Source of the DNA: Candidatus Krumholzibacteriia bacterium
GTDB taxonomy: Bacteria; Krumholzibacteriota; Krumholzibacteriia; JAJRXK01
Assembly (NCBI GenBank): GCA_041484665.1
Contig: JBGPIA010000014.1
Coordinates: forward strand, 1-64,000
Reading direction: 5' to 3'
DNA length: 64,000 nt
The notes beneath the pieces are model-generated. The model did not search any database, had not been told where the DNA came from, and saw only the letters and a list, made by a program, of their open reading frames with translations. Of the stretch, positions 1 through 64,000 are shown piece after piece (the stretch's first letter is position 1; every line of letters begins with the position of its first letter). The position numbers and the translations under genes were made by a program.

Positions 1-61
1 CGGCTTCCCGCCAGTAGGGCTTGGCCAGCGTCCTGGCCAGCCACGACTTCCTCGAGCTCAT
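1..61 (-). CDS. 5' end of a hypothetical gene running off the window (MSSRKSWLARTLAKPYWREA...)
   Basis: ATG at 61 preceded by a GGGAGG RBS-like motif on the minus strand; only 20 codons visible. Confidence 0.3.
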   Translation of the reverse strand, partial: MSSRKSWLARTLAKPYWREA

Positions 62-140
62 CGGACACCACCTCCCAGGGGGTGCCCGACAGTGTCAGGC
101 GCCAGCGGTCAGCTCAACATGGGTTGCCCGAACGGATACT

Positions 141-757
141 CGGCAAGGCCCCAGGACCCTGGGACTTGCGCGGCGGGTGAAGCGGCAATCGTCCGTGACG
201 GGCGGCGCAGCAGGTTGCCCGTCGACTGCGAACGGCCGGATCGGCGGGGCCGGCTGGGGCGAATGGTGACTTCGAACAGCCGGATAGAGCACCCTCGACC
301 GAAGCCAACAACGGTGGCGAACGTCGGCAATGCCCCGGATCATCGGACCTGCCAGGCGCGTAGAGCGGCAAACGTCCGTGACGGGGGGCGCGTCAGGCCC
401 CCGGTGGACCGCGGACGGTCGGATCGGCGGGGCCGGCAGGGGCGAATGGCAACTGCGAACGGCCGGATCGAACGCCGCCGGCCGGTGCTATCAACGGCGG
501 CGAACGTCGGCAAGGCCCCAGACCCCGGGACTTGCGCGGCGGGTGGAGCGGCGAACGTCCGTGACCGACGACGCGACAGGCCGCCGATCGACTGCGAACG
601 GCCGGATCGAGCGGGCCGGCGAGGGCGAACGACGACTGCCAACGGCCCGATCGAACGCGGTCGGCCGGAGCCATCAACGGTGGCGAACGTCGGCAGGGCC
701 GAGGACCACGGGAATTGCGAGGCGGGTGGCGCAGCGAACGTCCGTGACGGTCGGCGC
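141..757. repeat. Higher-order tandem array: about 3.4 copies of a 183-bp unit, each containing four GCGAACG-like cores
   Basis: Units start at 141, 325, 508, 691. Cores at 185, 228, 272, 317, 368, 411, 455, 500, 551, 594, 638, 683, 734, with recurring 43/44/45/51 bp spacing. Confidence 0.9.
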
Positions 758-33499: not shown

Positions 33500-33647
33500 G
33501 GGGCCGCAGTATAGGCCATCGCCCCCGCGGGCCCAATCGCTGTATATGAGGACGCGTGATGCCCGCGGCCCGCCGGGCGTCGAGTCGGTGAGCGGCGCAG
33601 GTGGTGGGCGCGCCACGGGCGGTGGGCGCAGCGCCGGCAGCAAGCGC

Positions 33648-33780
33648 AGCACTGCCGGCGGGTACGGCGCCCCGCCAGCGGGCGCGGCGGGTTTAGCACT
33701 GCCGGCGGGCACGGCAGGCGCCGCCAGCGGGCTCGGCGGGTTCAGCGCTGCCCGCGGGCGCGGCAGGCGCCGCCAGCGGC
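33648..33780. repeat. Intergenic 47-49 bp tandem repeat, about 2.8 copies
   Basis: AGC(A/G)CTGCC(G/C)GCGGG...CGCCAGCGG restarts at 33648, 33695, 33744. Confidence 0.75.
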
Positions 33781-50500: not shown

Positions 50501-50672
50501 CGTATCGTCCGGCCCCGCTGGATCGTCCTACGCCGGCCGTGTCGTCCTGCCCCGGCTGGGTCGTCCTGCCCTGGCTGGATCGTCCTGTCCTGGCTGGATC
50601 GTCCTACGCCGGCGGTAGTGTCCGGCCCCGGCCGGGTCGTCCTGCCCTGGCTGGATCGTCCTGTCCTGGCTC
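50501..50672. repeat. About 19-bp minisatellite (consensus TCGTCCTGCCCTGGCTGGA), about 9 copies
   Basis: Recurring TCGTCC cores at about 19 bp spacing between the kinase and methyltransferase genes. Confidence 0.85.
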
Positions 50673-60384: not shown

Positions 60385-60540
60385 AGCCGATGATCGGGGC
60401 AGCTGATCGGGGTTCGTGATCGGGACCGGCGTTTCGGGTCGACGTTCCAGGCCGACGATCGGGGTCGACATCCCGGGCCGACGATCGGGGTCGACGATCG
60501 GAACTTGCGATCGAGCCCGGCGAATCCAATCGACGATGGA
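60385..60540. repeat. About 13-bp degenerate minisatellite (GATCGGGGTCGAC)
   Basis: Repeated GATCGG / GTCGAC cores downstream of the 59710 gene. Confidence 0.7.
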
Positions 60541-62023: not shown

Positions 62024-62411
62024 AGGGTCGCGGCGTGGGCGCGGGGGGGCCGAGCAGAGCGGGGTGGACGCCGCGCAGAACCAAGCGGCAGTGGTGTCCG
62101 TACCCGCTGGCGCCGCCGGACCGCGGGACCGTCCGTCCATCGCTGCGCCGACGCCAGTGTACGACCCTATTGTACGATGAGCGCGCTGCGACGTCCGCTG
62201 CGGAGTCGGGAGGAGTGCGCGCCGGGGACGGGGGCGGCGTGCCGGAGTGGGAAACGTGGCGCGGCGATGAGCGCGGGACAGGCACGTAGCGGGCAGCACG
62301 GGACAGTCACATTGCGATCAGCACAGGACGCGCAGTTGGCGATAGGCGCGGCGAGGTGTGACGGCAGCGACACCGTGCGCCGCCTTCGGTCGGCCTGACT
62401 GTCAGCTGCGA

Positions 62412-62852: not shown

Positions 62853-62881
62853 TTGACGGGGGGCCTCTCATAGGATACACT
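62853..62881 (+). promoter_or_regulatory. sigma70-type promoter of the DUF222/HNH-like gene
   Basis: TTGACG-N17-TACACT, 45 bp upstream of ATG 62927. Confidence 0.7.
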
Positions 62882-62926: not shown

Positions 62927-64000
62927 ATGCCGTCGCTGCTGCGGCCCCCGGGGCCGCCGGATCCCTGCGGCCCCCGCGGGGAAACCCTCGGCCTGGTCCT
63001 CTCGCCCCCACCGACCCCCGCGCCGTCGCGGTCCGCTGACTGGATTCGCCTGCTGCTGCCGTCCGCCGGCAGTGCGCGAGCTTCCGCGCAGGCCGCTAAC
63101 GCCGCGCTGTGGCAGCGCTGTGCCAAGCTCGTCTCGGAGCCCTTGCAGTTGCGCGCGGAGCTCTGCCGACTGGCCGCCCGATTTGCCGACATCGAGGGCC
63201 GGCGCTGGCTGGCCTACTCCAGCCGCTCCGACTACGCCGTCGAGCGGTTGGGGATCTCCGGCGGAGCCTTCTGCGATGCGGTGGGCGCCGGCCGGCTCTT
63301 CGCGCGCTGTTCCGCCGCGCAGCACGCGTTCCTCACGGGTTGCGCGAGCTACGCCGTCGTCGTAGAGCTGGCGCGCGTCCACGACCCGGCGTTCGTCGAG
63401 TCCCTGCTGCCCCGGGTGCACGGGCTGACCCGCAAGGAAGTGCGAGCGGCGATCCAGTGGGTGCTGGGAGATGAGCAGCGCGCCTGCGGTGGCGACTGCG
63501 AACGGCCGGATCGCGGCGGGGTGGCAGGTGACACAGTGGCTGTCGCGGGCTCCGACTGCGAACGGCAGGATCGAGGTGGGGCGGTCTGTGCACGTACGGA
63601 CGATGCGGAGGCCGACTGCGAACGGCCGGATCGAGGTGGGGCGGTCTGTATAAGTAGGGACGATGCAGAGGCCGACTGCGAACGGCCGGTTCGCCGACTG
63701 GTGCCCGACGCCCCGCCCTCCTTTATGCGCATCCGCTGGGACGGTCCCGCACTCCATGTGCACGTTATCGAGCGGACGCTGCAGTTCGCCTCCCTGCTCC
63801 TGGGCCGCGATGCCCCCCTGGACCAGCTGCTCGCCGCCATGGCGGCCGAGGCCAGCACCGAGATCGAGATCACCGTATCCGCCGAGGAGGCCTGCCGCCG
63901 GTTCGGCGTCCGCCTGCATGCCGAGGGCACCGACCTCGTGTCCCTGGCCCGGCGGGCCGCGGCCCACGGCGCCACCCAAGCTGACGCGACCGATGCCGCC
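62927..64000 (+). CDS. DUF222/HNH-endonuclease-like protein, 5' part (runs off the window; absent from the ORF track)
   Basis: Hand translation open to the window end: MPSLLRPP...RWLAYSSRSDYAVERLGIS...AFLTGCASY..VVELARV, then 4x DCERPDR repeats; GGAG RBS; HNH motif itself not visible. Confidence 0.65.
   Translation, partial: MPSLLRPPGPPDPCGPRGETLGLVLSPPPTPAPSRSADWIRLLLPSAGSARASAQAANAALWQRCAKLVSEPLQLRAELCRLAARFADIEGRRWLAYSSRSDYAVERLGISGGAFCDAVGAGRLFARCSAAQHAFLTGCASYAVVVELARVHDPAFVESLLPRVHGLTRKEVRAAIQWVLGDEQRACGGDCERPDRGGVAGDTVAVAGSDCERQDRGGAVCARTDDAEADCERPDRGGAVCISRDDAEADCERPVRRLVPDAPPSFMRIRWDGPALHVHVIERTLQFASLLLGRDAPLDQLLAAMAAEASTEIEITVSAEEACRRFGVRLHAEGTDLVSLARRAAAHGATQADATDAA
63493..63693 (+). 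repeat. 60-bp in-frame tandem array, 4 copies of the CGACTGCGAACGGCCGGATCG core
   Basis: Cores at 63493, 63553, 63613, 63673, separated by 39-bp more variable segments. Confidence 0.92.

Follow-up and report, generated by a model that had tools for sequence, protein, structure and literature searches.

The window analyzed in this study comprises the first 64 kb (64,000 nucleotides) of contig C14 of a 5.4-Mb genome with 70% GC (G000). At its right end lies the 5' part of a two-module HNH gene (62927..64000, plus strand), which continues beyond the window to contig position 65278 and encodes a product of 783 aa with two homologous modules and a C-terminal HNH domain. Module 1, assigned by homology as DUF222/ParB-HTH-like, spans 63131..63469; module 2, with a predicted ParB/Noc/KorB fold (64172-64579), and the zinc-binding HNH domain (about 64997-65125) are located past the window end, as given in C14 numbering, and all of them are on the plus strand. 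A sigma70-type promoter-like site, TTGACG-17-TACACT, is present at 62853..62881 on the same strand (one found vs. 0.0 in shuffles), and on its 3' side follows the leader word GCCTCCC, which is common to related genes and arrays. At the other end of the window, tandem-repeat search detected an array on the plus strand (the left array; 140..757) with 3.4 copies of a 183-bp unit at 79%, and positions 1..139 are occupied by the end of a multicopy IS66-family element, with no strand assigned, which splits the left array from its leader.

The gene had originally been predicted to be DUF222/HNH-like; the HNH part of this description was upheld at the family level, and the 783-aa protein itself gave no HMM match to PF02720 (DUF222). 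The protein alone matched Pfam HNH weakly (E 0.25), while 28 of the 32 family members in a 32-protein alignment matched it, and the zinc-binding and catalytic (His/Asn/His) residues of the domain are at least 90% conserved among these proteins. The two modules of the gene are homologous to each other (hhalign 97%, E 1e-10) and also to the module of a shorter HNH family that has only one (hhalign 97.9% for module 1 and 96.6% for module 2). Weak matches to DUF222 and to HTH_ParB were each found in 2 of 15 module-1 members, and among the one-module HNH relatives in 23/32 and 14/32, respectively. The structure model of module 2 (pLDDT 92) retrieved only Noc/ParB/Spo0J proteins in the top nine rows of Foldseek, albeit weakly (best E 0.62), and KorB/ParB/Spo0J proteins in the top four rows of a VIA search, with Z scores of 6.5-7.1 (below 8) over 91-110 aligned residues. 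PDB sequence searches with the modules returned nothing relevant. No Pfam family of the CTP-binding ParB N-terminal domain was detected in any of the 32 members, and no Y1/HUH tyrosine transposase, Nop or Cas family was matched by the protein of the gene or by family members. The gene family is multicopy in G000, with nine matches, several of them at contig ends, and with gene fragments, and it occurs in 1-5 copies per genome in seven of nine family relatives. One of the fragments, a 3' part of the gene with a stop codon, lies at C12:6800-8280 of G000, and its adjoining region presumably encodes a group II intron reverse-transcriptase.

A 21-mer, hereafter site A, had been reported to occur exactly at positions 223, 589, 63493 and 63613 and nearly so at 450, 63553 and 63673; all the exact copies were confirmed in the window, each of the near-exact ones carries one mismatch, and an additional copy with two mismatches, missing from that list, was found at 633. 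At up to three mismatches the window contains eight matches vs. 0.02 expected, and none of 100 shuffles reached eight; the genome-wide count in G000, the window included, is 22 sites at the same threshold. The 13-bp core occurs 22 times in G000 vs. 0.77 expected under an order-6 Markov model. Inside the gene, the mismatch scan placed linker copy 1 (exact) at 63493..63513, copy 2 (one mismatch) at 63553..63573 and copy 3 (exact) at 63613..63633, and copy 4, with one mismatch and with 17 bp identical to the source site described below, lies at 63673..63693, all on the plus strand. The 60-bp spacing of these copies and their DCERPDR reading frame had been described correctly. The supposed repeat-spacer layout with variable linkers was not, as 63552-63693 is a 60-bp tandem repeat of 2.4 copies at 91% identity; both window arrays are tandem repeats, and the 39-bp linkers are therefore not unique spacers. 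Nor did the imperfect palindrome prove significant: when four copies of 31 nt were folded, none was more stable than its shuffles (z +0.64, -0.56, -0.75 and -0.01), and the palindrome of the 21-mer is incidental. Other tandem repeats of the window, at 50505-50671, 33647-33779, 60421-60501 and 62270-62329 (periods 19, 49, 13 and 25), do not contain the A word.

The 21-mer had been regarded as the primary element, but the primary element is a fixed coding site 943 bp beyond the fourth linker copy, outside the window. This source site A (64616-64636 in C14 numbering, plus strand), located just 3' of module 2 and read as QLRTAGL, is the fifth copy of the word in the gene, in a different frame from the linker copies, and it is the 20-bp word at this fixed coding position that the 21-mer nearly reproduces. 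Across 11 close genes, the best self-repeat of the conserved region lies at profile columns 410-414. The idea that the conserved entity is DNA rather than peptide was corroborated, as synonymous conservation among 365 windows is highest at the source position (excess 0.42 vs. a median of 0.04), and the Arg codon of the site is CGA in 13/14 genes, compared with 11% usage. The site is intact within all 21 family genes. Its left half is near-constant, ACT[CG]C[GA]A[AG]C, its right half varies between paralogues, and at this coding position every paralogue has a site of its own. At up to three mismatches, 14 of the 21 family genes have their own 20-nt site recurring in their own locus vs. 2 of 777 control windows, although these 21 genes come from 8 related genomes with 15 distinct sites and are thus not independent; all the recurrences listed are on the same strand and mostly upstream, and the remaining 7 genes have no copy of their site in their own locus.

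Identity of the copies to the source extends from about -5 to +15 and ends abruptly on the right side, and some array units match a gene over about 30 bp, which points to copying. The copies often share departures from the source (A in G000, R-type in G008 and CAAAC in G002), and those of G000 differ from it at recurring positions, so they are not verbatim copies of the present gene. With profile-anchored sites, 124 of 126 copies lie within three mismatches of a source in their own genome and 107 match their own source best or equally well, a tally that is partly circular because the copies had been selected by match. A joint of linker copy and source was not found in Logan contigs of 4 of 24 runs, and such contigs drop rare variants.

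As had been anticipated, relatives carry their own clade-specific words both in the gene and between genes, as judged from genome-wide word counts. Exact 15-mers of site A occur 16 times in G000 and once in the other 20 genomes; the N site was counted 8-13 times in each of the four genomes that have an N gene and 0-2 times in each of the other 17. The G002 site CGAGCGTCCATCCA was found 18 times in G002 and once in the other 20 genomes, its CAAAC variant, which belongs to two G002 paralogues, nine times in G002 and not in four others, and word B 16 times in G000 and twice in nine others. In the five genomes searched for R-type variants, these track the resident gene. Most site types tested are scattered mainly in genomes with the matching gene; two genes, one in G001 and one in G003, have a site that is not dispersed. 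Word B is present twice in the linker of paralogue B, and the fixed position of the full-length protein, with LRTSA, agrees with word B; its source is known from protein alone, the DNA being absent from the G000 assembly, and paralogue B is predicted to carry GCGAACGTCGGC at the fixed coding position. For word C no source was found, as the candidate paralogue reads LRATRTSL and its back-translations gave nothing convincing. V-type units persist in G006 and G009, although a two-module V gene was not detected in either genome. The linker word GCTCCACGTTTTCC of a distant two-module subfamily occurs in 16 and 24 copies in G011 and G026, respectively (2 of 41 genomes), and no fixed source site was found for it. 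At four loci (L042, L150, L191 and L192), a one-module HNH gene has an asymmetric word at one position that differs between genomes, being N-type in G006 and a variant in G004 and G009; this word may be a recipient copy or the own site of that gene. Moreover, single A copies occur on the sense strand in variable stretches of unrelated genes at G000 C34:2623 and C20:33035, which we take to be DnaE2-like and anti-sigma-like genes, respectively.

One-module HNH genes, which are present in 35 of 121 genomes of the class, have sites of a different form. A perfect palindrome of at least 14 bp was found in 26/34 one-module genes (6.1 expected) vs. 3/21 two-module genes (5.2 expected), and 14 of the 26 palindromes, counted by hand, lie 11-14 codons before a CxxC. 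For two such palindromes, the counts are 100-171 and 26-33 in the respective clades and zero in two controls each. Two one-module genes of G000 (C8:19049-21016, and C24:14106-15659 on the minus strand) have perfect palindromes of 18 and 16 bp with three and four exact genomic copies, own gene included. One-module sites are thus palindromic and two-module sites asymmetric. In ParB-type proteins, palindromes are read by homodimers, and asymmetric sites can be read by two diverged modules fused into one chain; by analogy, the fused diverged modules of this family would read theirs, and the change from palindromic to asymmetric with module number favours readout by protein over hairpin or RNA-guide models. 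It is more likely that the predicted ParB-type modules recognize the site than that the HNH domain does. An acidic residue in a module-2 helix accompanies Arg at the site in 38/39 proteins vs. 3/8 with Gln (nominal p 2e-4), the best of all columns but one picked by eye and non-significant over a few thousand column tests. In addition, the genes with a V site branch from within those with an N site and differ by two changes in the helix, which represents one event only.

In the left array, besides A, two more recurring words, GCGAACGTCGGCA and GGCGAACGTCCGTG, are present, and the three words are related. On the plus strand, the A cores are at 225, 269, 408, 452, 591 and 635, the B words at 317, 500 and 683, and the C words at 184, 367, 550 and 733. 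Its flanks had been called unrelated, which does not apply among themselves, where they form the 183-bp repeat, and does apply with respect to the gene, with which there are only matches of 21-36 bp. Because the matches to coding sequence are this short, the array is not a decayed copy of it, in agreement with the original prediction. None of the three observations named there as contrary to it, namely a word not enriched at HNH paralogues, a gene lacking a nuclease domain and a left array that is just a decayed copy of the gene with alignable flanks, held in full, yet the arrays share promoter and leader with the genes. Of the 16 ends of the IS66 element that were found, the one at the end of C30 is the only one sharing the 8-bp target duplication at 140-147 with the start of C14, and the C30 end contains four more sites together with the upstream leader module. 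Judging from these contig ends, the left array is the far half of a locus split by the IS66 element. Overall, IS66 target duplications pair the contig ends C30-C14, C5-C19, C35-C30 and C36-C11.

Arrays in relatives have 2-8 units, often 35-39 bp apart, that alternate the sites of paralogues on one strand. They combine the sites of the several paralogues of a genome, and their units repeat two or three self words rather than diverse spacers. A promoter pattern, consisting of a CAAAC-N4-TTTG-like box and GCCTCCC, precedes 13/16 array loci and 8/16 gene loci, a pattern that was derived from these same sequences and has no background rate. The perfect box CAAAC-N4-GTTTG occurs twice at a gene start in G000 (C2:752291 and 752321); this gene is presumably DinB-like, and the doubled box before it suggests that the box may be the LexA box of the lineage. 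A copy of word B is found at the end of the same DinB-like gene. The G000 arrays follow a 250-bp module, with what we take to be a sigma54-like motif, that likewise precedes paralogue B, although the leader-module search in G000 was circular, 7 of its 10 matches being training copies. In G002, arrays and genes share leaders of 82-94 bp at 80-84%. In three genomes (G006, G009 and G001), an array lies directly before a dnaE-like gene (L135, L114 and L193), with words and unit numbers that differ among the three.

A 409-column leader common to six arrays was considered as an RNA scaffold and rejected, as it folds but shows a double change in just 6 of 111 pairs. At L049 and L110, an opposite-strand remnant, which we take to be the frameshifted C-terminus of an integron-integrase, lies upstream of the array promoter. 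GC skew was too weak to orient the sites relative to replication. Binding to double-stranded DNA does not by itself explain why the arrays are oriented on a single strand behind promoters, and the only account we can offer for this orientation is that the arrays would share their origin with the 5' ends of the genes.

The comparative evidence strongly supports a real gene-and-site system, as read from related genomes. On balance, the 21-mer, a near-copy of the fixed site, is probably the docking site of the protein of its own gene. It is highly probable that the protein binds as a single-chain pseudo-dimer, with each of two predicted ParB/Noc-type modules taking one half-site; if so, duplication of the module would have freed the site from palindromy. 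It is plausible, although we hold it slightly less than probable, that the HNH domain nicks DNA close to bound sites and that the ensuing short-range copying and duplication spread both sites and gene. According to this proposal, the HNH domain would nick at or next to bound sites, and repair would copy 20-30 bp from another bound site or duplicate the stretch between two sites, so that sites would multiply where they are tolerated. The same nicking activity would disperse the gene too, and arrays would be gene-less derivatives that also soak up protein. Tentatively, and with more doubt than for its parts, the system can be regarded as a candidate new class of selfish element, in which the protein would read an address in its own coding sequence via two ParB-type domains and the HNH domain would write this address, and at times the whole gene, elsewhere, with paralogues sharing arrays behind damage-inducible promoters that would be rewritten as the resident genes change.

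Several features could also arise if the site were an operator by which the protein represses its own gene, with arrays as selected decoys or regulatory sites and copies made by slippage and host recombination instead of by the nuclease. KorB represses via its operators, and the drift of copies to a consensus rather than to the letters of the gene, often seen in G000 A, G008 R-type and G002 CAAAC, is what binding selection would produce. The arrays with differing words at the same place before the dnaE-like gene in three genomes, and the promoter pattern of the genes at array and gene loci alike, point in the same direction. However, the matches to a gene of about 30 bp exceed the core footprint, the 100-171 copies per genome in one-module clades exceed regulatory need, variable linkers of unrelated genes contain copies as well, and the HNH residues are retained; such an operator system is rather unlikely. 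The arrays might otherwise be neutral remains of decayed HNH elements, enlarged by minisatellite expansion, with a word that has no function. The leaders that arrays and genes have in common (in G002, and the paralogue B module in G000), the tandem-repeat nature of both window arrays and the gene fragments in G000 would fit such remains. The fixed source and its synonymous constraint, the mixing of several paralogues' words in one array, and the presence of different words at one position of a second HNH gene in different genomes are left unexplained by them, and no decayed coding sequence was found around the arrays, which makes neutral remains very improbable.

The remaining alternatives dispense with protein readout of double-stranded DNA. 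A guide function, whereby RNA from the gene or the arrays would pair with DNA and direct the HNH domain as in TIGR-Tas or IscB, would suit the footprint of about 20 nt, the 35-39-bp array period behind a promoter, the single-strand orientation and the weak similarity of the HNH domain to IscB. It is nevertheless improbable, as no conserved RNA structure was found at the site in 19 sequences, Rfam gave no matches in five loci, the units are two or three repeated self words instead of diverse spacers, and the predicted fold is of ParB type with no Nop or Cas family match; furthermore, a guide would give no reason for the palindrome/asymmetric switch with module number. The hairpin analogy to REP/RAYT drawn in the original prediction did not survive, since the repeat has no hairpin (z -0.75 to +0.64) and no consensus structure and is accompanied by no HUH transposase. 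Recognition and cutting of a single-stranded hairpin, as in REP/RAYT, could explain why a nuclease is accompanied by cognate repeats that are dispersed, clade-specific and combined in mixed arrays as in REP/BIME, and copy 4 can form a 6-bp stem. Against it, folding is no better than in shuffles, the two-module sites of relatives are non-palindromic, the enzyme is an HNH protein with no Y1/HUH family match, and copies are direct rather than in inverted pairs; such a system is extremely improbable here.

Protein readout of the source site with nick-driven spreading, our preferred interpretation, can be compared with several known systems. ParB-parS, Noc-NBS and KorB-OB resemble it in the predicted fold of module 2 and the weak HTH_ParB matches of relatives, and ParB-parS also in the many genomic copies of a 16-20-bp site, which is usually CG-centred here, parS being centred on CG. 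Unlike in ParB, Noc and KorB, there are two modules per chain, an asymmetric site, a C-terminal HNH domain and no match to the ParB N-terminal domain, and the site lies within its own gene and is multicopy and paralogue-specific. In REP/RAYT (REPIN, BIME), a nuclease gene is paired with its own dispersed short repeat and arrays are mixed; the present system likewise pairs a nuclease gene with its own dispersed clade-specific repeat, apart from the exceptions in G001 and G003, but has HNH instead of an HUH tyrosine transposase, no hairpin, and a master copy in the coding sequence instead of flanking it. The HNH nickases I-HmuI and I-BasI are homing endonucleases, in which a mobile nuclease has a separate DNA-binding part, and in the autorepression of I-TevI and the origin-in-gene initiators lambda O and P2 A a protein binds a site in or beside its own gene. 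Both arrangements are similar to the one here, whereas the target of a homing gene is destroyed on insertion and here the gene keeps its site, intact in all 21 genes, and the site multiplies, provided that it is the target; moreover, unlike homing and origin-in-gene systems, no intron, intein or replicon was seen.

The short-period arrays behind a promoter, in company with an HNH nuclease, are reminiscent of TIGR-TasH and CRISPR; the differences are that diverse spacers and Nop or Cas matches are missing, that the arrays lie away from the gene and that their units are self sites. The DUF222/REP13E12-HNH proteins (PF02720 + PF01844) share with the present one a C-terminal HNH domain, the multicopy state and a module homologous to that of one-module proteins, and differ in that this protein has a duplicated module and no DUF222 match. 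By analogy, the system is most like ParB-parS in recognition and most like REP/RAYT in its nuclease and private repeat, and it departs in defining features from ParB-parS, REP/RAYT, CRISPR/TIGR and homing genes. REP13E12 regions are described as having no defined function and as gene-conversion hot spots with 87 events (PMC13061034), and REP13E12/HNH/DUF222 is listed among repetitive elements (PMC10589994). In the literature searched, which covered few subscription papers, neither a cognate site for DUF222 proteins nor a description of this gene-site system was found.

If the binding site of each such protein lies within its gene, at a coding position that can be predicted, the substrate could be read from the gene and tested. 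To our knowledge, DUF222/13E12-type HNH genes are common and multicopy and have no known function, and a gene family of unexplained function would thereby gain a testable mechanism. If true, this would also account for dispersed repeats of a lineage-specific class, which reach 171 copies per genome here, and DNA reading by ParB-type domains could be studied on many matched protein-site pairs. A route from palindromic to asymmetric 20-bp recognition within one chain is suggested by the two-module form, which is relevant to nuclease design; were the selfish-element reading true, a protein and its site would be naturally paired in each gene, and the two-module form would amount to a single-chain nuclease for 20 bp whose halves evolve separately.

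Two further repeats of G000 are separate from this system. Ten parS-like palindromes, GTTCCACGTGGAAC at up to one mismatch, are clustered within 0.9 kb at C20:42202-43053, apart from site A, and presumably represent the parS cluster of the chromosome. The most strongly over-represented 14-mers of the genome are TTGAACGGGTTGGG and its variants, whose opposite strand reads PNPFN, and these are probably a repeated protein motif unrelated to the HNH-gene family.
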